This document shows, one piece after another, positions 2,741-11,871 of a stretch of 64,000 nucleotides of DNA. This stretch comes from Bacteroidales bacterium (lineage in GTDB: Bacteria > Bacteroidota > Bacteroidia > Bacteroidales > WCHB1-69), in assembly GCA_017540505.1 (NCBI GenBank), contig JAFYAW010000012.1:13847-77846 (forward strand), in the 5' to 3' direction. The translations under genes and the position numbers were made by a program. The notes beneath the pieces are model-generated. The model ran no database searches and was not told the DNA's origin. It saw only the letters and a list, made by a program, of their open reading frames with translations. Numbering within the stretch: the first letter of the stretch is position 1; every line of letters begins with the position of its first letter.

Positions 2741-3946
2741 ATGGCAAAAGTTCTCATCATCGGGGCCGGCGGCGTAGGTGCCGTGGTAGCCCACAAATGC
2801 GCTTCCGTACCGGAAGTCTTCACGGAAATCATGCTCGCCTCCCGCACCAAATCCAAATGCGACAAGATCGCAGCCGAAATCGGAGGCAACCGCATCCAGA
2901 CCGCACAGGTGGATGCCGACAATGTGGAGGAAACCATCCGCCTGATTGAAAGCTATAAACCCGACCTGCTGATCAACGTGGCCCTGCCCTATCAGGACCT
3001 TCCGCTCATGGATGCCTGTCTGGCCACCAAGACCAACTACATGGACACGGCCAACTACGAGCCCCGCGACAAAGCCAAATTCGAGTACAGCTGGCAGTGG
3101 GCCTATCAGGACCGCTTCAAAGAGGCCGGCATCATGGCCCTCCTCGGCTGCGGCTTCGACCCGGGCGTGACCAGCATCTACACCGCATACGCCGCCAAGC
3201 ACTATTTCGATGAGATCCACTACCTCGACATCGTGGACTGCAACGCCGGCGACCACGGCAAGGCCTTCGCCACCAACTTCAATCCCGAAATCAACATCCG
3301 CGAGATCACCCAGCGCGGCAAGTACTGGGAGAACGGCCAATGGGTGGAAATCGACCCAATGTCCATCCACCGTCCCGTGGATTACCCCAACATCGGCGAA
3401 CGCGAATCCTACCTGCTCTACCACGAGGAGCTGGAATCGCTGGTGCGCAGCTACCCATCCATCAAGCGTGCCCGCTTCTGGATGACCTTCGGACAGAAAT
3501 ACATCACCGTGCTCAATGTGCTGCAGGAAATCGGCATGACCAGCATCAAGCCCATCAACTACCAGGGTATGGACATCGTGCCGCTGCAGTTCCTGAAGGC
3601 CGTGCTGCCGGAGCCCTCCTCCTTAGGCGAAGGGTACCACGGACAGACCTCCATCGGCTGCCAGATCAAGGGTATAAAAGACGGGAAAGAGCGCACCTAC
3701 TATGTGTATAACAACTGCGACCACGCCGAATGCTTCAAGGAGATAGGCGCACAGGCCGTCTCTTACACCACGGGGGTGCCCGCCATGCTCTGCGCCAAGA
3801 TGATTCTCACCGGCACTTGGAAAGGCACGGGGGTGTTCAACGTGGAGCAGTTCGATCCGGATCCCTTCATGAAGGAGATCGGCGGCTACGGACTGCCCTG
3901 GCACGAGGTCATCGACCAGTCGCTGCCGGTCTATGCGCACGAATAG
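2741..3946 (+). CDS. saccharopine dehydrogenase family protein, carboxynorspermidine dehydrogenase/synthase-like (polyamine biosynthesis)
   Basis: 401 aa. N-terminal Rossmann motif KVLIIGAGGVGAVVAHK. Length and layout are typical of the bacterial carboxy(nor)spermidine dehydrogenase family. Confidence 0.7.
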   Translation: MAKVLIIGAGGVGAVVAHKCASVPEVFTEIMLASRTKSKCDKIAAEIGGNRIQTAQVDADNVEETIRLIESYKPDLLINVALPYQDLPLMDACLATKTNYMDTANYEPRDKAKFEYSWQWAYQDRFKEAGIMALLGCGFDPGVTSIYTAYAAKHYFDEIHYLDIVDCNAGDHGKAFATNFNPEINIREITQRGKYWENGQWVEIDPMSIHRPVDYPNIGERESYLLYHEELESLVRSYPSIKRARFWMTFGQKYITVLNVLQEIGMTSIKPINYQGMDIVPLQFLKAVLPEPSSLGEGYHGQTSIGCQIKGIKDGKERTYYVYNNCDHAECFKEIGAQAVSYTTGVPAMLCAKMILTGTWKGTGVFNVEQFDPDPFMKEIGGYGLPWHEVIDQSLPVYAHE

Positions 3947-3975
3947 AGCATCTTTGTCAATCTTAAAAGAGAACA

Positions 3976-4398
3976 ATGAAACTCATTCAGAAAATCAAAG
4001 AGAAAAAGCAACAGTTGATCCGGTTCTTGTTCGGCTCGTTCTCCGCCACCGCTCTGATGTTTACCTTTCAGGCTTGCTATGGGCCGCCGACTTTCGAAGA
4101 GGAAGTCCAGATTTTTGGCGTTGTCACAGATGCCGAAACCCAAGAGCCCGTGGAAGGTATCGCCATTGGTTTTGGAGAAGGAGTGCCGGAGGGCATAATA
4201 GACACGACCGACAACACTGGCTCCTTCGGAGATGCTAACCCCAAGTACATTCTATGGTTCGACACTTACCATGTCTATCTATGGGATACCGACAGCACAG
4301 AACATGGCCTGTATGAGTCGAAGACCACCACGCTTTCATTCGAAGACCTGCATTCACCCATCCAGCTGACAGTCAACCGGGTTCATGAAGACGAATAG
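3976..4398 (+). CDS. small putative lipoprotein, radical-SAM-associated
   Basis: 140 aa. Basic N-terminus, hydrophobic stretch ending in Cys (ATALMFTFQAC), then an acidic beta-rich body (VQIFGVVTDAETQEPVEGIAIGFG). Overlaps the next gene by 14 nt. Confidence 0.6.
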   Translation: MKLIQKIKEKKQQLIRFLFGSFSATALMFTFQACYGPPTFEEEVQIFGVVTDAETQEPVEGIAIGFGEGVPEGIIDTTDNTGSFGDANPKYILWFDTYHVYLWDTDSTEHGLYESKTTTLSFEDLHSPIQLTVNRVHEDE

Positions 4399-5443
4399 GC
4401 GAAACCCTTTCAAGAGATGTCTGTTCCGTATCTTCCGTCGGAATGAGACCGCCATTCACGAACTGAATTACCTGTTTTGGGAATGTACCTGGCGGTGCAA
4501 TTTGTCGTGCCGGCACTGCGGCTCCGACTGCAAGACCGAATCCTGTGTCCAGGACATGCCCTTTGCCGACTTCCTCAACGCCATAAAACCTTTGGAAAAA
4601 CGCTATCCGCGCAATACCACCGTCATCGCCATCACGGGTGGCGAGCCGCTGTTGCGCAAGGACTTGGCCGATTGCGGGCGAGCCTTGCGCCAACACGGTT
4701 TCCATTGGGGCATCGTCACCAATGGCATGTTGTACGACGAAACGCGCCACAAGGAGCTTCTGGCAGCGGGCTTAGGTTCCGTCACCGTGAGCTTGGATGG
4801 TTTGGAAGAGACCCACAACTGGCTCCGCCAGCATCCGGAGAGTTTTCAGCGTGCCTTGCGTGCGTTGAAGCTCATAGCCAGTGCGCCGCAGCTCAACTAC
4901 GACGTGGTAACCTGCGTGCACCAACGCAATCTGGCGGAACTTCCAGCCCTCAAGGAGGTGCTCATCGCCAACGGTATCCGGCACTGGCGGCTCTTCACCA
5001 TCGCCCCCATCGGACGCGCCGCCCACGACCACGAGCTACAACTCACCCGCGCACAGGTGGAATCCATGTTCCAGTTCATCGCCGACACACGCCGCGAAGG
5101 GAAAATCGACATCAAATTCAGTTGTGAAGCTTATACGGGCAAATATGAGGAGAGCGTTCGCGACAGCTATTTCTTCTGCCGCGCCGGCATCAACATTGGC
5201 TCCGTGCTCATCAACGGCGACATCTCCGCATGCCCCAACATCAACCGTTCATTCGTGCAAGGCAACATCTACCATGACGACCTTATGGATGTGTGGGACA
5301 ACCGTTTCCAAGTCATGCGCGAACGTGAGTGGATGCGCTGCGGTCCCTGCGCCCGCTGTACCGAATACAAGCAATGCTTGGGTGGGGCCATGCACCTCCG
5401 GGAAAGCCGAGGAGAGAACATCATGCGCTGTTGGAAGTTTTGA
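4385..5443 (+). CDS. radical SAM protein with C-terminal Cys-rich (SPASM/twitch-like) region
   Basis: 352 aa. CNLSCRHC matches the CX3CX2C radical SAM cluster motif. GGEPLL is a SAM-binding motif. C-terminal cluster RCGPCARCTEYKQC. Confidence 0.8.
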   Translation: MKTNRRNPFKRCLFRIFRRNETAIHELNYLFWECTWRCNLSCRHCGSDCKTESCVQDMPFADFLNAIKPLEKRYPRNTTVIAITGGEPLLRKDLADCGRALRQHGFHWGIVTNGMLYDETRHKELLAAGLGSVTVSLDGLEETHNWLRQHPESFQRALRALKLIASAPQLNYDVVTCVHQRNLAELPALKEVLIANGIRHWRLFTIAPIGRAAHDHELQLTRAQVESMFQFIADTRREGKIDIKFSCEAYTGKYEESVRDSYFFCRAGINIGSVLINGDISACPNINRSFVQGNIYHDDLMDVWDNRFQVMREREWMRCGPCARCTEYKQCLGGAMHLRESRGENIMRCWKF

Positions 5444-5473
5444 GAATCCTCCTGCAAATTCCCCGTTTTTTCG

Positions 5474-5481
5474 TATTTTTG
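5474..5481 (+). promoter_or_regulatory. Bacteroidetes -7 promoter box (TAnnTTTG)
   Basis: TATTTTTG lies 41 nt upstream of the rfbB ATG. Confidence 0.5.
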
Positions 5482-5521
5482 CCCCGCAATTATTTAGCAT
5501 TAAAGAATAAAAACATTTTAT

Positions 5522-6574
5522 ATGAAAAAAATCCTGATTACCGGAGGTGCCGGTTTCATCGGCTCCCATGTTGTAAGACTTTTCGTCAACAAATATCCCG
5601 ATTACGACATCTATAACTTAGACAACCTTACATACGCCGGGAACCTCGAAAACCTGACCGATGTGGAAGGAAAAACCAACTACCATTTCATCAAGGGCGA
5701 TATTGCCGATCAGGATTTTATCATGAAAATCTTTCAGGAGCATCAGTTTGACGGGGTCATCCACTTGGCTGCCGAGTCACACGTGGACCGTTCCATCACC
5801 GACCCGATGACTTTCGTGCACACCAACGTGTTAGGCACCGTGCATCTGCTGAATGCCGCCCGCACCATTTGGAACGGCAATTGGGAAGGCAAGAAATACT
5901 ACCAGATCTCCACGGATGAGGTTTACGGAGCATTGGGGGCTACAGGCGCATTCCAGGAGACCACCCCATACAACCCGCACAGTCCCTACTCTGCCGCCAA
6001 GGCCAGTGCCGACCATTTCGTGCGCGCCTACCACGACACATACGGCATGCCGACCGTCATCAGCAACTGCTCCAACAACTATGGTCCGTACCAGTTTCCA
6101 GAAAAGCTTATTCCTTTGTTTATCAATAATATAAAACACAATAAACCGCTTCCTGTGTACGGTCAGGGCATCAACGTGCGTGACTGGCTCTACGTGGAGG
6201 ACCATGCCGAGGCCATCGACCTCATCTTCCACAAGGCCGCTCCCGGCTCTACCTACAACATCGGCGGCAATAACGAGTGGCGCAACATCGACCTCATCAA
6301 GAAGCTGATCGAGATCATGGACCGCAAGCTGGGCCGTCCAGAAGGCACTTCGCTGGCTTTGATTACCTACGTCACCGACCGCGCCGGCCACGACCTACGC
6401 TATGCCATCGACCCTACCAAGATCAAGAACGAGTTGGGCTGGCAGCCGAGAGTGAAGTTCGATGAAGGCTTCGAGAAAACCGTGGACTGGTACTTAGCCA
6501 ACGAGGAGTGGTTCAACCACGTCACCTCTGGAGCCTACGTGGACTACTACAAGAAAATGTACGAGGGACGATAG
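5522..6574 (+). CDS. rfbB: dTDP-glucose 4,6-dehydratase
   Basis: 350 aa. GGAGFIGSH Rossmann motif, SDR catalytic context YSAAKASAD (YxxxK), and LDNLTYAGNLENL typical of RfbB. Confidence 0.9.
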   Translation: MKKILITGGAGFIGSHVVRLFVNKYPDYDIYNLDNLTYAGNLENLTDVEGKTNYHFIKGDIADQDFIMKIFQEHQFDGVIHLAAESHVDRSITDPMTFVHTNVLGTVHLLNAARTIWNGNWEGKKYYQISTDEVYGALGATGAFQETTPYNPHSPYSAAKASADHFVRAYHDTYGMPTVISNCSNNYGPYQFPEKLIPLFINNIKHNKPLPVYGQGINVRDWLYVEDHAEAIDLIFHKAAPGSTYNIGGNNEWRNIDLIKKLIEIMDRKLGRPEGTSLALITYVTDRAGHDLRYAIDPTKIKNELGWQPRVKFDEGFEKTVDWYLANEEWFNHVTSGAYVDYYKKMYEGR

Positions 6575-6604: not shown

Positions 6605-8038
6605 ATGGTTTTCAGCTCGCTGACCTTCTTATTCCTATTTCTCCCCATTGTTATATGCCTGTTGGCACTTTGCCGGCGGGTGCCCTATCAGAACACACTC
6701 CTGTTCGCCGCCAGCATCCTCTTTTATGCTTGGGGCGGTGTCAGCTACACGCTGATTCTCATTGTATCCATATTGGTAAACTACATTTGCGGTTTGCTCA
6801 TCGCCCGACGACGGCGGCGGACCTTCTGGTTAGTGTTAGCCATCATCTTGGATTTGTCCGCGTTAGCATTCTTCAAATACGCCAACTTCATAGTGGACAA
6901 CTTCAACATCTTGGGTGGCATGTTCGGCATGTCGCCAATCACTCTGCGGAACATAGTATTGCCCATCGGCATCTCCTTCTATACCTTCCAGGGCATCTCA
7001 TACATAGTGGACGTATATCGGGGTCAGGTGCAGGCGCAGACCAACCTCATCAAATTAGGCACCTATATTGCTCTGTTCCCGCAACTGATAGCCGGGCCCA
7101 TCATCCGATACCATGAAATCGAGCCGCAACTCTCGAACCGTGATTTCAGCTTCGGGAACATGTATGAGGGCATTCGCCGCTTCTGCATCGGGTTGGCACG
7201 TAAAGTTTTCATCGCGAACCAATTGGCTATCATTGCCGATGACATCTTCGCACGCGCACCGGAAACCATGCCCTGGTGGGCGCTTTGGATCGGCGCCCTT
7301 TGCTACTCGCTGCAAATCTACCACGACTTTGCCGGCTATTCCGACATGGCCATCGGATTGGGCCGGATGTTCGGGTTCCGATTCCCCGAGAACTTCAATT
7401 TCCCGTATCTTGCCACCTCCATCCGTGAATTCTGGCGGCGCTGGCACATCACACTCTCGGCCTGGTTCAAAGATTATCTATACATCCCATTAGGAGGAAA
7501 CCGCAAGGGTGAGAAACGCACTTTTCTCAATCTCTACATCGTGTTCTTCCTCACTGGCCTCTGGCATGGGGCCAGCTGGACCTTCGTGGTATGGGGCCTT
7601 CTGCACGGTTCCTTCATGGTGATAGAGCGCATTGGCTTCGACCGTGTTTTGGGCAAAGTCTTCAAGCCCGCACAACACTTGTACGCACTGCTCGTGGTGG
7701 TCATCGCGTGGGTCTTCTTCCGTGCCGACGGAATAACCTACGCGTTGCACTATGTGCGGCAGATGTTCGCCTTCGTTGGCGGCTCCGGCAGCGGTCTCTT
7801 CCTGCAACAATATCTCCAGCCTTCGTTTATCCTGTTCGCCACGGTAGGCGTAGTCGGATGCACCCCGCTGTTCGCCCGCTGCCATGAAGCCCTTCAGACA
7901 GCCATCGTTAGAGGCAACAAACCTCTTTGGCACCTGCAGCACATCGGCACCATCGCCGCCATCGCCATCCTGTTGTTGACAGTAAGCAGCTTTTTAGTCG
8001 CTGGCAGTTACAATCCTTTCATCTATTTCCGATTCTAA
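6605..8038 (+). CDS. MBOAT family O-acyltransferase (AlgI/DltB/PatA-like)
   Basis: 477 aa polytopic membrane protein. Conserved MBOAT histidine context FWRRWHITLSAWFKDYLYIPLGGNR. Confidence 0.85.
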   Translation: MVFSSLTFLFLFLPIVICLLALCRRVPYQNTLLFAASILFYAWGGVSYTLILIVSILVNYICGLLIARRRRRTFWLVLAIILDLSALAFFKYANFIVDNFNILGGMFGMSPITLRNIVLPIGISFYTFQGISYIVDVYRGQVQAQTNLIKLGTYIALFPQLIAGPIIRYHEIEPQLSNRDFSFGNMYEGIRRFCIGLARKVFIANQLAIIADDIFARAPETMPWWALWIGALCYSLQIYHDFAGYSDMAIGLGRMFGFRFPENFNFPYLATSIREFWRRWHITLSAWFKDYLYIPLGGNRKGEKRTFLNLYIVFFLTGLWHGASWTFVVWGLLHGSFMVIERIGFDRVLGKVFKPAQHLYALLVVVIAWVFFRADGITYALHYVRQMFAFVGGSGSGLFLQQYLQPSFILFATVGVVGCTPLFARCHEALQTAIVRGNKPLWHLQHIGTIAAIAILLLTVSSFLVAGSYNPFIYFRF

Positions 8039-8040
8039 CC

Positions 8041-9207
8041 ATGAAAGAGCGCCAGAACCCCTATATTATCCTCACCGTCATCCTGTTCGTATGCATGCTG
8101 GCCTTCCCTGCCTTCCATTTAGTATGCCATCGCAATCAGGCGACCGACAGCCAACGGGAGAACAGGACCTTGGCTTCATTCCCTTCACTGAATCCGGCCC
8201 GTCTGGACAAATTCCCAGCCCAGTTCGATTACTATTTCAACGACCATTTCCCTTTCCGCGACCGATTCTTGGACGCCTACTTCCTCTATGCCATGTTCAA
8301 CCGACAGTCACCCACACCGTCCGTCGTTCTCGGCAAAGAGGATTTCCTTTTTAGTGGTAAAGAGGAGAAAGAGCTTTTCGAAGGGAAATTGGAGTTTACG
8401 GAGGAGCAGATGGCCATTGTGGCGGATGAGTTGGCACGGCGTTTCGACACTCTTCAAAAGATGGGCATCCGTTACTACGTATTCCTTGCCCCCACTTCAT
8501 ATGAGATCCACCCGGAATATCTGCCTCCCTATTTACGGCGGGCCCCTGAAACAGCTACCGATAAGTTTTGTAAAGTGATGCGTGAGCGTGCGCCAGAAGT
8601 CCCACTCACCTACCTCAAATCCACTCTCCTCAACCATAAAGGGGGCACGCTGCTATACCGCAAAAACGACAACCACTGGAACATGCTTGCGGCTCAATAT
8701 AGTGCTGAAAAAATCCTGAAGACGCTCTCCAAAGACTATCCTATGCTGCCTGCTACCATATGTCAGGATTTTGACCTTAGCCCTTACGTTTATGACGGCG
8801 GCAATCTGTATTCTTGGATCTCCATACGGGGAAATTCTCCCAAATACCGTGCAGATCAGGAATATGGCGTTCTTTACACGGATACTATTGGTTTTATTTC
8901 CATAGAGGATACCGAACAGGACTTCACCCCAACCGAAGGGTTCGCCTATCCGGACGCGTATGAAAAACAATTCCGTACCAACCGCACCGACCACCCAAAA
9001 ATCCTGTTCATCCGTGACTCTTATTGTAACAACATCATCCCCTTTGTATCGCCCTACTTCCATGAGTCGCTTTTCATTTTCGACGCATGGCAATATGGGG
9101 CAAATTACGATATCATACGACAAGTGAATCCTAATATTGTGGTGCTGATGATTTACGAGCCGCACATCCGCAACATATACAAAACGTTAGAATTTTCATG
9201 CAAATAA
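8041..9207 (+). CDS. AlgJ/AlgX-like (DxHW motif) putative polysaccharide O-acetyltransferase partner
   Basis: The ATG at 8041 lies 2 nt after the MBOAT stop; the ORF-track start at 7927 overlaps the MBOAT gene. N-terminal membrane anchor ILTVILFVCMLAFPAF. NDNHWN matches the D-x-H-W motif of AlgJ/AlgX-type proteins. Confidence 0.6.
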   Translation: MKERQNPYIILTVILFVCMLAFPAFHLVCHRNQATDSQRENRTLASFPSLNPARLDKFPAQFDYYFNDHFPFRDRFLDAYFLYAMFNRQSPTPSVVLGKEDFLFSGKEEKELFEGKLEFTEEQMAIVADELARRFDTLQKMGIRYYVFLAPTSYEIHPEYLPPYLRRAPETATDKFCKVMRERAPEVPLTYLKSTLLNHKGGTLLYRKNDNHWNMLAAQYSAEKILKTLSKDYPMLPATICQDFDLSPYVYDGGNLYSWISIRGNSPKYRADQEYGVLYTDTIGFISIEDTEQDFTPTEGFAYPDAYEKQFRTNRTDHPKILFIRDSYCNNIIPFVSPYFHESLFIFDAWQYGANYDIIRQVNPNIVVLMIYEPHIRNIYKTLEFSCK

Positions 9208-10785: not shown

Positions 10786-11871
10786 TTATACCTCCATAGT
10801 CAATATCTTTTCTTCATCCATCCCTACGATTTTGGCGACGACAGCTGGCGCCATGCCGTTAGCCAGCATATTCCGTATAAGCATCTGACGCTCCTCTATT
10901 CGACCTTTTTCTATTCCTTTTTCTATTCCTTTTTCTATTTCCTCCTTCATTCCTTTCTTCATTCCTTTCTTCATTCCTTTCTCCATTCCTTTCTCCATTC
11001 CTTTCTCCATTCCTTTCTCCATTCCTTTTTCCATTCCTTTTTCCAACCCCTCTTTCATTCCCTTTTTCAAACCTTCTTTCATCCCTTCTTTCATTCCCTT
11101 TCTCAGCCCCAATTCCTTTCCCTCTTCTATCCCTTGTTTCACCCCTTCACGTCGGCCAACTTTTATCCATGTGGCCTCCACGCTGACAGCATCCCAATAT
11201 TTGTCATATATATAACGCTCTGCATCGCTGTAGTTGATAGCCTCCAATAGCCCGATGGCTTTGGCGATATCATGGTCGGCAAGCAGATCTGGAGGCGGAA
11301 AGCGAGTCTCTTCCTGCATCTCCGTGAAAAAACGCATCCAGAGATCCCGCTTAGAAGAGCCCTTCTCCTGTAACTTCTGAAACTTCTCTATCTCAACAAA
11401 CACGATTTTAAGGCCTTCGAGCACCCTATCCGTGTGATACTCGTGAACGATGCGGTAAGGATGATACCACTCTTCAATGTCCGGATGGCTATTTCCATTG
11501 ACAAAATTCAAAGAATAGACAGGCTGCAGTAAATCATACGTACCCCCCTTCTGAAGTTGATTCACATAAGCTTTTGAGGTGTTGAAAAGAACCCGTTGGT
11601 AAAAGCTTTCCGCCCAATTGAGCTGCATTTCCACAAGAAACTGAGAACCGGAAGAATCCTTACAACAGACATCCACGATACTGTTCTTGCGAGCTGGTGT
11701 CTCAGGCATAAGTTCAGCTGAGATGTAGTGAAAGGATGTTATGGTTCGGCCACCTTCCAACGGCAGGAAAGCATTAAGGAGGCTCGTGGCCAAGTCAATG
11801 TTTTGCCCGAATATTTTACGAAATGTGACATCGGTAATAGGACTATAATATTTAATAGGACCCCTGATCAT
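10786..11871 (-). CDS. Rpn family recombination-promoting nuclease / PD-(D/E)XK putative transposase
   Basis: 361 aa. N-terminal SPITDVTFRKIFG...NSIVDVCCKD...FLVEMQLNW (PD-(D/E)XK core D...E.Q). The C-terminus is a long (E/K)KG(M/I/L) repeat. Confidence 0.75.
   Translation of the reverse strand: MIRGPIKYYSPITDVTFRKIFGQNIDLATSLLNAFLPLEGGRTITSFHYISAELMPETPARKNSIVDVCCKDSSGSQFLVEMQLNWAESFYQRVLFNTSKAYVNQLQKGGTYDLLQPVYSLNFVNGNSHPDIEEWYHPYRIVHEYHTDRVLEGLKIVFVEIEKFQKLQEKGSSKRDLWMRFFTEMQEETRFPPPDLLADHDIAKAIGLLEAINYSDAERYIYDKYWDAVSVEATWIKVGRREGVKQGIEEGKELGLRKGMKEGMKEGLKKGMKEGLEKGMEKGMEKGMEKGMEKGMEKGMKKGMKKGMKEEIEKGIEKGIEKGRIEERQMLIRNMLANGMAPAVVAKIVGMDEEKILTMEV
10909..11100 (-). repeat. about 16 tandem 12-nt units (plus strand (T/C)T(C/T)CATTCCTTT and variants) encoding (E/K)KG(M/I) tetrapeptides
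   Basis: Direct reading: CTCCATTCCTTT x4 (10981-11028), CTTCATTCCTTT x3 (10945-10980), TTCTATTCCTTT x2 (10909-10932), with degenerate units out to about 11100. Protein: GMKEGMKEGLKKGMKEGLEKGMEKGMEKGMEKGMEKGMEKGMKKGMKKGMKEEIEKGIEKGIEKG. Confidence 0.9.

Follow-up and report, generated by a model that had tools for sequence, protein, structure and literature searches.

An X-Tyr-Gly-x-Pro motif at the signal-peptide end of lipoproteins paired with TIGR04133 radical SAM/SPASM enzymes, a candidate site for splicease-like processing

The window analyzed here, a 64,000-nucleotide stretch of contig JAFYAW010000012.1 from a Bacteroidales bacterium, carries an overlapping pair of forward-strand genes for a 140-amino-acid (aa) putative pre-lipoprotein and a 352-aa radical S-adenosylmethionine (SAM)/SPASM enzyme. 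The pairing of such proteins is already catalogued, as TIGR04133/TIGR04134, and what is new is the constant X-Tyr-Gly feature of the partner. Comparison of partner sequences shows that a single pattern is constant in the wider family, namely, X-Y-G-x-P behind a signal peptide or lipobox. In the reading that we favor, with moderate confidence and by analogy with known systems, the enzyme carries out a splicease-like modification of the pre-lipoprotein ahead of Sec export, and the signal peptide takes the part of the leader. The features of the pair are as follows.

3976 to 4398, forward strand: gene for the putative pre-lipoprotein (TIGR04134 type), 140 aa; open reading frame (ORF) starting with ATG, TIGR04134 match below the cutoff, 96 homologues.
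3976 to 4074, forward strand: leader, residues 1 to 33, with the basic n-region KIKEKKQQLIR and the hydrophobic segment FLFGSFSATALMFTFQA; from alignment, AlphaFold2 (AF2) model, and codon variation.
4075 to 4083, forward strand: codons of C34-Y35-G36, the candidate lipobox Cys and X-Tyr-Gly motif, proposed as the modification site; from invariance, enrichment, and the match to the splicease X-Y-G site.
4084 to 4089, forward strand: P37-P38, the "x-P" after Y-G; P38 is invariant, and the PlpA2 tag likewise reads Y-G-x-P.
4096 to 4374, forward strand: acidic beta-sandwich body, residues 41 to 133, transthyretin-like or carboxypeptidase-regulatory-like; from AF2, Foldseek, and a weak match to Pfam PF13715.
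4385 to 4398, forward strand: 14-nucleotide (nt) overlap of both genes, with the enzyme ATG within the last codons of the partner.
4385 to 5443, forward strand: gene for the TIGR04133-family radical SAM/SPASM enzyme, 352 aa; ORF, TIGR04133 and Pfam matches, homologues 62 to 91% identical.
4496 to 4519, forward strand: CX3CX2C motif CNLSCRHC (C38/C42/C45) of the radical SAM [4Fe-4S] cluster; unvaried among 18 family members.
5123 to 5431, forward strand: SPASM region of the auxiliary Fe-S clusters, with C247, C265, C283, C322, C325, C331, and C349; these seven Cys are invariant in the family alignment.

The translation of the small ORF begins MKLIQKIKEKKQQLIRFLFGSFSATALMFTFQAC. Its N-terminal basic stretch is MKLIQKIKEKKQQLIR, and the hydrophobic segment after it ends at FQAC34. 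Charge is sharply divided in this protein, with a pI of 10.6 for the leader (residues 1 to 33) and of 4.05 for the body, where 106 residues include 22 D/E and 3 K/R. In an alignment of 32 homologues (32 to 77% identity), leader residues R16, L18, F19, G20, F22, T25, A26, M28, F29, F31, and Q32 are invariant, as are C34, Y35, G36, and P38, and the body is variable. By this alignment, the signal-peptide-like leader is the best-conserved region of the small protein. Ordinary signal peptides are not this strongly conserved. Features of a lipoprotein signal peptide in the window partner are the basic n-region, a hydrophobic segment of 15 residues, and the candidate lipobox F-Q-A-C34, which has an atypical Gln at position −2; related partners have the canonical lipoboxes LLGFSSC or LGFGC, followed by acidic residues. 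The signal is of the Sec type, without a twin arginine.

Both members of the pair are real genes on the evidence of their sequence conservation. At least 23 metagenome contigs carry the identical enzyme sequence in unchanged context, with the two genes likewise called at 140 and 352 aa, and homologues number 96 for the small protein and thousands for the enzyme. The invariant residues F-Q-A-C-Y-G are written with two to four synonymous codons each across 16 loci, which points to selection on the protein. An RNA or DNA element as the source of the N-terminal conservation was ruled out by this synonymous codon use and by zero Rfam matches in the window. A promoter and terminator scan of positions 3700 to 5700 found nothing exceeding shuffled expectation. 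The overlap at 4385 to 4398 is predicted to couple the translation of the partner and enzyme genes.

The pair recurs as a unit. One-genome-per-species contigs and metagenome contigs were scanned with an alignment of the enzyme, yielding 87 loci with at least 200 bits against the family hidden Markov model (HMM), and adjacency was counted in the 82 loci that have at least 500 nt of upstream flank. A same-strand signal-peptide protein with YG adjoins the enzyme gene, mostly upstream, in 69 of these 82 loci by automatic detection, and manual inspection adds five loci with a partner (L088, L114, L129, L116, and L025). Conservation of the two genes as neighbors elsewhere had been named beforehand, in a first-pass annotation of the window, as the test by which the pairing could be refuted; neighbors they are at these loci. 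Clustering of all flanking ORFs of the loci revealed no third conserved gene, and, on these comparisons, the TIGR04133 enzyme and its partner are a two-gene module set in varied contexts. Among cultured bacteria, the pair is present in Treponema saccharophilum (WP_002703396.1 and WP_141607155.1), Parabacteroides distasonis (WP_005853865.1 and WP_036633130.1), and Phocaeicola massiliensis; in the first two of these, both genes carry names from the Prokaryotic Genome Annotation Pipeline (PGAP). The 14-nt overlap is identical in T. saccharophilum, and a 5-nt gap separates the genes in P. distasonis. Hosts from the human or animal gut include P. distasonis, Phocaeicola, and metagenome-assembled genomes (MAGs) labelled Prevotella and Alistipes. 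Beyond Bacteroidota, MAGs of Treponema, Bradymonadales, Anaeromyxobacteraceae (Myxococcota), and Clostridia hold family members or close relatives with the same type of partner. The pair is thereby present in at least four phyla, and the restriction to Bacteroidetes given in the first-pass annotation does not hold.

Two variants of this arrangement were observed. At an Alistipes MAG locus (L022), two body-type partner copies are separated from the TIGR04133 gene by a second, different radical SAM/SPASM gene and the 61-aa partner that follows it (6716 to 7747, forward strand). At some loci of Clostridia-like relatives (L025, 2990 to 3247; L132, 170 to 1428; both forward strand), the partner is a small membrane protein instead of a lipoprotein, and in these partners x-Y-G (VAYGVP, LAYGPM, DMYGTF) is followed by hydrophobic putative transmembrane segments.

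What stays constant among the partners is the short motif. Because the 91 high-confidence partners were picked on YG, Tyr and Gly are present in them by construction; the invariance of Y35 and G36 in the 32 aligned homologues is independent of that selection. The residue X is Met in 29 of the 91 partners, Glu in 24, Cys in 20, Val in 7, Leu in 6, and Ala in 4. The residue after Gly varies as well (T, P, V, S, M, C), and Pro stands two residues past Gly in 75 of 91. The motif is located either right at the lipobox Cys (FQAC-YGMP, the type found in the window) or up to about 33 residues beyond it, set apart from a canonical lipobox by an acidic stretch, as in LLGFSSCSQSGDMYGTP and LGFGCSSSSDEPDILVMYGTP. 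Of 78 adjacent small lipobox ORFs, 71 have YG no more than 45 aa past the lipobox Cys, against 12 of 136 other lipobox ORFs from the same loci (Fisher p = 2e-35), and 5 of these 12 YG-positive control ORFs are partners beside truncated enzyme genes. In distant enzyme relatives (200 to 350 bits, with TIGR04133 still the best model), the partners contain three to five (V/L)YGPP repeats (L026, L124, and L129).

The body, in turn, is not a constant part of these proteins. Twenty-two of the 91 partners are no longer than 100 aa, and the short partners that were inspected (L003, L006, L011, L014, L022, L023, L028, and L029) present an acidic tail alone, with no folded domain. As far as partner sequences tell, the folded body is dispensable, being variable and replaced by a short acidic tail in those 22 partners. 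Moreover, 16 loci have two to four tandem partners, and tandem partners together with repeated motifs are, by analogy, hallmarks of precursors of peptides that are ribosomally synthesized and modified post-translationally (RiPPs). Since the body is variable and often absent while the leader and X-Y-G-x-P are kept, the likely target of the enzyme is the motif at the signal-peptide end. Post-translational modification of the small protein, which had been proposed from the sequence of the window, is thus the best-supported reading, with the probable target shifted to X-Tyr-Gly-x-Pro and away from the body.

Three to four tandem partner genes can precede a single enzyme gene. Four copies with MYGTP are found at L020 (6067 to 7926) and four with EYGCPY at L016 (6070 to 7952), whereas L014 (6959 to 7998) combines two body-type partners with one 53-aa copy.

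The enzyme scores 476.3 bits (E = 4.9e-143) against TIGR04133 (rSAM_w_lipo), above the cutoff of 425 and over profile positions 9 to 344 of 350, and is a member of that family. Pfam matches are Radical_SAM (63.1 bits) and SPASM (28.8 bits, cutoff 21.5; residues 265 to 326). The small protein reaches 31 bits (E = 2.2e-7) against TIGR04134, "radical SAM-associated putative lipoprotein," below the cutoff of 39.8; several homologues with 45 to 52% identity carry a TIGR04134-type name in NCBI or JGI records (for example, P0013 and P0031). By its sequence, the small protein is a divergent relative of TIGR04134 that falls outside model-defined membership. These HMM searches had been proposed in the first-pass annotation, and the database pair without an assigned reaction that it referred to is TIGR04133 and TIGR04134, both hypothetical equivalogs. 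Its reading of the gene pair also agrees with the sequence in the sizes of both ORFs, the 14-nt overlap, the basic N-terminus with a hydrophobic stretch running to FQAC, the acidic beta-rich body (pI 4.05, with a beta-sandwich in the AF2 model), and the radical SAM motif. The C-terminal Cys cluster it described is present, with CGPCARCTEYKQC close to the C-terminus of the enzyme, but C319, the first Cys of CGPC, is not conserved in the family. A review of the type IX secretion system (T9SS; PMC11611037) gives TIGR04134 as the accession of type B C-terminal domains, which looks like a mis-citation.

The AF2 model of the enzyme is of moderate quality (predicted local distance difference test [pLDDT] score of 66) and was used for fold class alone. 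Its best Foldseek matches include SkfB, SuiB, PqqE, and the anaerobic sulfatase-maturating enzyme anSME (4k39), with BlsE, a nucleoside decarboxylase, second; sequence comparison agrees. In this model, the fold is like that of peptide-modifying SPASM enzymes.

A cytoplasmic radical SAM enzyme acting on an exported protein has a precedent in anSME, which modifies Sec-exported sulfatases in the cytoplasm, before export. In the splicease-like scheme, the TIGR04133 enzyme would be made in the cytoplasm from the overlapping downstream gene and would bind the N-terminal helix of the unfolded precursor, giving the signal peptide a second role as RiPP-type leader or activator. The AF2 model of the partner, with its N-terminal helix of residues 2 to 35, suggests a fit to such a leader-helix role. 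The enzyme would then act at X-Tyr-Gly prior to Sec export, most likely by cutting a tyramine equivalent (C8H9NO, −135.07 Da) from Tyr35 and rejoining the backbone. The general Sec/Lgt/LspA machinery would export and lipidate the protein and remove the leader; this housekeeping route would explain the absence of a dedicated transporter or peptidase gene. The product would be a protein or acidic peptide, anchored in the membrane or at the surface, that bears an electrophilic keto-amide on or close to its lipid anchor and could serve as a protease-inhibiting or covalently reactive warhead.

Several properties of characterized spliceases are in line with this scheme. As radical SAM/SPASM enzymes, they remove a tyramine equivalent (C8H9NO) at X-Y-G, with X variable (PMC11414181, PMC10533398), and a free X before a fixed Y-G follows the logic of a splice site, because X becomes the beta-residue. 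The absence of an assigned reaction, stated in the first-pass annotation, is true of the databases, although the match of the motif to this X-Y-G site offers a lead on the chemistry. MYG and LYG occur as natural sites, with PLYGLPI and AAMYGVVFPG as tags (PMC11414181, PMC10533398, PMC11626197); the PlpA2 splice tag PIRPLYGLPI has the form Y-G-x-P, as does the window partner (PMC10533398). Binary systems of a splicease and a precursor without a Y protein exist, and for one of them, Rha, docking on the enzyme is predicted for an alpha-helix in the leader of the precursor; fusion of the leader to RhaX gave leader-independent splicing, and the substrates of spliceases include folded proteins as well as peptides (PMC11414181). 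Splicease products inhibit Ser and Cys proteases (PMC11626197). More tentatively, and with some doubt on our part, the module of gut Bacteroidales, found also in Treponema and Clostridia, may be a device for backbone splicing of exported lipoproteins, in which the signal peptide is the RiPP leader, signal peptidase II the leader peptidase, and Sec the exporter, with a lipid-anchored surface warhead as the outcome. No link of spliceases to lipoproteins or to TIGR04133 was found in the searchable literature, and the splicease survey of Scott et al. 2022 (Chem 8:2659), which spans 189 genera with 27 verified and 939 predicted systems, may already include the family.

A number of observations weigh against splicing. 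Y-A replaces Y-G in a few partners (L116 and the second copy in L027), and two close family members (L013 and L021) clearly have no adjacent partner. Glu is frequent at X (24 of 91), and an acidic site, DYG in RcsA, was tested and not spliced (PMC11626197). In the subtype of the window, the lipobox Cys itself, the presumed site of lipidation, is X, so that Lgt and LspA would face a keto-beta-Cys, and an N-terminal keto-amide without P2 to P4 residues would make an odd protease inhibitor. The similarity of the enzyme does not favor a splicease family either. It scores 113 bits on TIGR04103 (cutoff 725), which places it outside that family, and this is no better than TIGR04053 (122), AhbD (119.5), MftC (114), or TIGR03913 (113). 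TIGR04103 is taken here to be the PlpX family, for which the database entry is IPR026482, and other splicease types are phylogenetically distinct (PMC11414181).

Outgroup relatives point both ways. In a tblastn search over all PLSDB plasmid records, the best non-family match was an enzyme of Agathobacter rectalis (143 bits; L167, NZ_CP143948.1, 3031 to 4185), whose best NCBIfam model is TIGR04103 at 235 bits, below the cutoff. Just upstream of this radical SAM gene, at about 2845 to 2949 on the forward strand, lies an unannotated short ORF, MFNLEELSLEFVKISELKTSKNLFGPVMYGTGVRM, with MYG, and a major facilitator superfamily (MFS) transporter lies on the other side; from its sequence, this arrangement looks like a classic leader-core MYG peptide cluster, unannotated, in a common human gut Firmicute, and as the nearest outgroup it counts in favor of splicing. 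True AhbD proteins are the second-closest outgroup by BLAST, at 125 bits, near the A. rectalis enzyme, and this counts against splicing. NCBIfam models were rejected as a means of classing the chemistry of the enzyme, as they do not discriminate: five families lie at 113 to 122 bits, and outgroup relatives behave likewise. Generic SPASM loci from two collection scans (L031 to L080 and L141 to L160), which served as controls, were AhbD-like where tested and had no YG-rich neighbors. Since similarity of the enzyme is undiscriminating, the case for a splicease rests on the substrate side.

All of the comparative motif evidence counts equally for another reaction at the same X-Tyr-Gly-x-Pro site, such as a crosslink centered on Tyr through C-C or C-S (a Y-G-X cyclophane of three residues, or a thioether from a neighboring Cys or Met), epimerization, or a change at Cα or Cβ of Tyr or Gly. 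SPASM enzymes catalyze a variety of reactions on peptides, SkfB, SuiB, and PqqE as the best structural matches all form crosslinks, and sulfur residues (M, C) occupy 49 of the 91 X positions. A crosslink from X would nevertheless not be general, as 41 of the 91 partners have E, V, L, or A at this position, and the varying residue after Gly disfavors a fixed cyclophane acceptor. We know of no other characterized radical SAM family that is defined by X-Y-G. A fixed Y-G with a free X is, by contrast, the specific signature described for spliceases (PMC11414181, PMC10533398), and we consider a different chemistry at this site unlikely, if a serious contender.

Two further explanations dispense with the motif as a substrate. 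The enzyme might act on a small molecule (tetrapyrrole, lipid, or cofactor), with the lipoprotein as membrane anchor, regulator, or carrier of the product. The best non-family NCBIfam scores, which include AhbD (119.5), NirJ2 (115.7), and TIGR04053 (122), the position of AhbD proteins as second-closest BLAST outgroup, and an invariant Tyr that could in principle ligate heme would all suit this role. Against it, the enzyme is far under the AhbD cutoff (119 versus 500 bits), conservation of the partner is confined to a short linear motif and the leader, bodies differ or give way to acidic tails in partners of 53 to 80 aa, and tandem copies with internal motif repeats are typical of substrates, not carriers. 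Furthermore, a Sec-type signal without a twin arginine implies passage of the membrane in an unfolded state, and hence no carriage of a cofactor loaded in the cytoplasm. For this reason, and because the partner can be a foldless tail of 53 to 80 aa, maturation of a carried cofactor, the other option of the first-pass annotation, is disfavored, and action on a small molecule appears improbable overall. That the two genes are chance neighbors in one genome might be argued from the functionally unrelated polyamine and dTDP-sugar genes around them and from the two enzymes (L013 and L021) that lack an adjacent partner. The pair, however, travels through wholly different contexts in at least four phyla with no third conserved gene, keeps a tight start/stop spacing (including the identical overlap in T. 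saccharophilum), and belongs to two families that NCBIfam defines by each other. A meaningless adjacency thus has a vanishingly small probability, and, at the level of sequence comparison, it is refuted by the co-occurrence data.

Splicease-like processing, which we continue to prefer, can be set against the known systems that the pair resembles. Relative to the TIGR04133/TIGR04134 examples in P. distasonis and T. saccharophilum, the enzyme is a full member and gene order and overlap match, whereas the window partner is below the threshold and represents an FQAC-YG subtype in which the motif abuts the lipobox Cys. With the spliceotide systems (PlpX/PcpX with a Y protein; binary RhaX/RhaA, RcsX, and RasX) it shares a radical SAM/SPASM enzyme beside an X-Y-G precursor, the frequent MYG or LYG and occasional Y-G-x-P, a binary architecture, a leader alpha-helix (predicted for the window partner), and several sites per precursor. 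In contrast to them, the leader of the window partner is a putative Sec/lipoprotein signal peptide and not of the Nif11/NHLP type, genes for a Y protein, protease, and transporter are missing from the pair, the enzyme family is distinct, X is often Cys or Glu, and the window system is known from its genes alone.

The resemblance to anSME, a structural match (4k39), lies in a cytoplasmic radical SAM/SPASM enzyme whose target is a short motif of proteins bound for Sec export, which in Bacteroides are often lipoproteins, and which acts before that export. However, anSME oxidizes Cys or Ser to formylglycine, its genes are not paired with a single dedicated substrate gene, and its motif C/S-x-P/A-x-R is absent here, where Cys34 is followed by Y-G-P-P-T with no Arg at +4. 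The anSME family TIGR03942 is not among the best 25 of 73 families matched by the enzyme. Formation of formylglycine at the lipobox Cys was rejected on the missing motif and on the lack of conservation of Cys at X.

AhbD and NirJ are close in size (339 to 360 aa) and show a similar degree of similarity (119 bits by profile and 125 by BLAST), but their substrates are tetrapyrroles, a dedicated peptide or protein partner is not encoded beside them, and the scores of the window enzyme (NirJ2, 115.7 bits; NirJ, 107.5; AhbD, 119.5) are far under the curated AhbD/NirJ cutoffs of at least 500. The enzyme is likewise below the cutoffs of MftC (114 bits, cutoff 265) and PqqE (81.7 bits, cutoff 381). 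No gene for a PqqD-like chaperone adjoins the pair, and the Tyr of the partner is internal and N-terminal, not C-terminal as in MftC and PqqE precursors with their Val-Tyr or Glu...Tyr.

The GDL-motif systems (a TIGR03913 enzyme with DUF1843/DUF1842 proteins) also combine a SPASM family at 108 to 124 bits from the window enzyme with adjacent multicopy small x-Y-G proteins. Their substrates, in contrast, are cytoplasmic and helical and have no signal peptide, their enzymes are about 475 to 520 aa, and the similarity is no greater than that of AhbD. In GDL-motif proteins (DUF1843 and DUF1842-DUF1843 fusions), x-Y-G (MLYGG, KPYGV, TPYGV, AMYGV, PMYGV) is found close to the N-terminus or where the domains join, with Y-A or Y-M in some copies; such loci were seen in Azospirillum lipoferum (L168), Burkholderia pseudomallei (L169), Aureibacter tunicatorum (L170), and Ralstonia solanacearum (L171). 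Judging from these motifs, GDL-motif systems may use the same X-Y-G logic.

The AF2 model of the small protein (mean pLDDT of 84.8) consists of a single long helix (residues 2 to 35) that ends at C34-Y35, a G-P-P linker, and a beta-sandwich of residues 41 to 133. Foldseek against the PDB matched this body to the transthyretin-like domain of carboxypeptidase D and to the SusC NTE domain (E about 4e-4), and Pfam returned nothing beyond a weak CarboxypepD_reg-like match (PF13715). The modeled beta-sandwich is consistent with a generic scaffold for variable cargo. An acidic loop, D-x-D-(G/S)-x-x-N-G-x-(F/Y), is common to the bodies of otherwise divergent partners at many loci; it reads DTDSTEHGLYE in the window (4285 to 4320, residues about 104 to 115) and EDVDGADNGSF or DIDGEANGGDF elsewhere. 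From its sequence, this loop is possibly a Ca2+-binding site.

The pair is immediately flanked by a carboxynorspermidine synthase-like gene (2741 to 3946) and a gene for dTDP-glucose 4,6-dehydratase (5522 to 6574), and no peptidase or transporter gene adjoins it among the neighbors in the window; in both respects, gene annotation agrees with the earlier description of the neighborhood. Right after the dehydratase gene, at 6605 to 9207 on the forward strand, come a membrane-bound O-acyltransferase (MBOAT; DltB-like, 166 bits, below the cutoff) and then an ALGX-domain protein, likely a polysaccharide O-acylation pair unconnected to the radical SAM/lipoprotein module. Farther along, at 10786 to 11871 on the reverse strand, lies a gene for an Rpn-family recombination-promoting nuclease/putative transposase (TIGR01784, 122.8 bits), the product of which has a C-terminal run of KGME/KGMK repeats, (E)KGMEKGMEKGMEKGMEKGMKKGMKKGM.

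Recognition of X-Tyr-Gly as the constant feature of the partners narrows the chemistry of this family to one question, namely, whether or not 135.07 Da is lost at Tyr35. Should the mass shift differ, the substrate and site defined for this family would still serve the search for a new radical SAM reaction. If splicing is correct, formation of beta-amino keto-amides would reach beyond secreted peptide natural products and take in envelope proteins with a lipid anchor, and the role of leader for a modifying enzyme would fall to an ordinary signal peptide, which would explain why no protease or transporter gene is needed. This would be a class of spliceotides at the protein level that depends on housekeeping functions and is undescribed in the searchable literature, as well as a natural two-gene tool for setting a reactive keto-amide beside a membrane anchor. 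In gut anaerobes, such a surface warhead could act in protease inhibition, in covalent attachment, or in resistance of the anchor linker to proteolysis.

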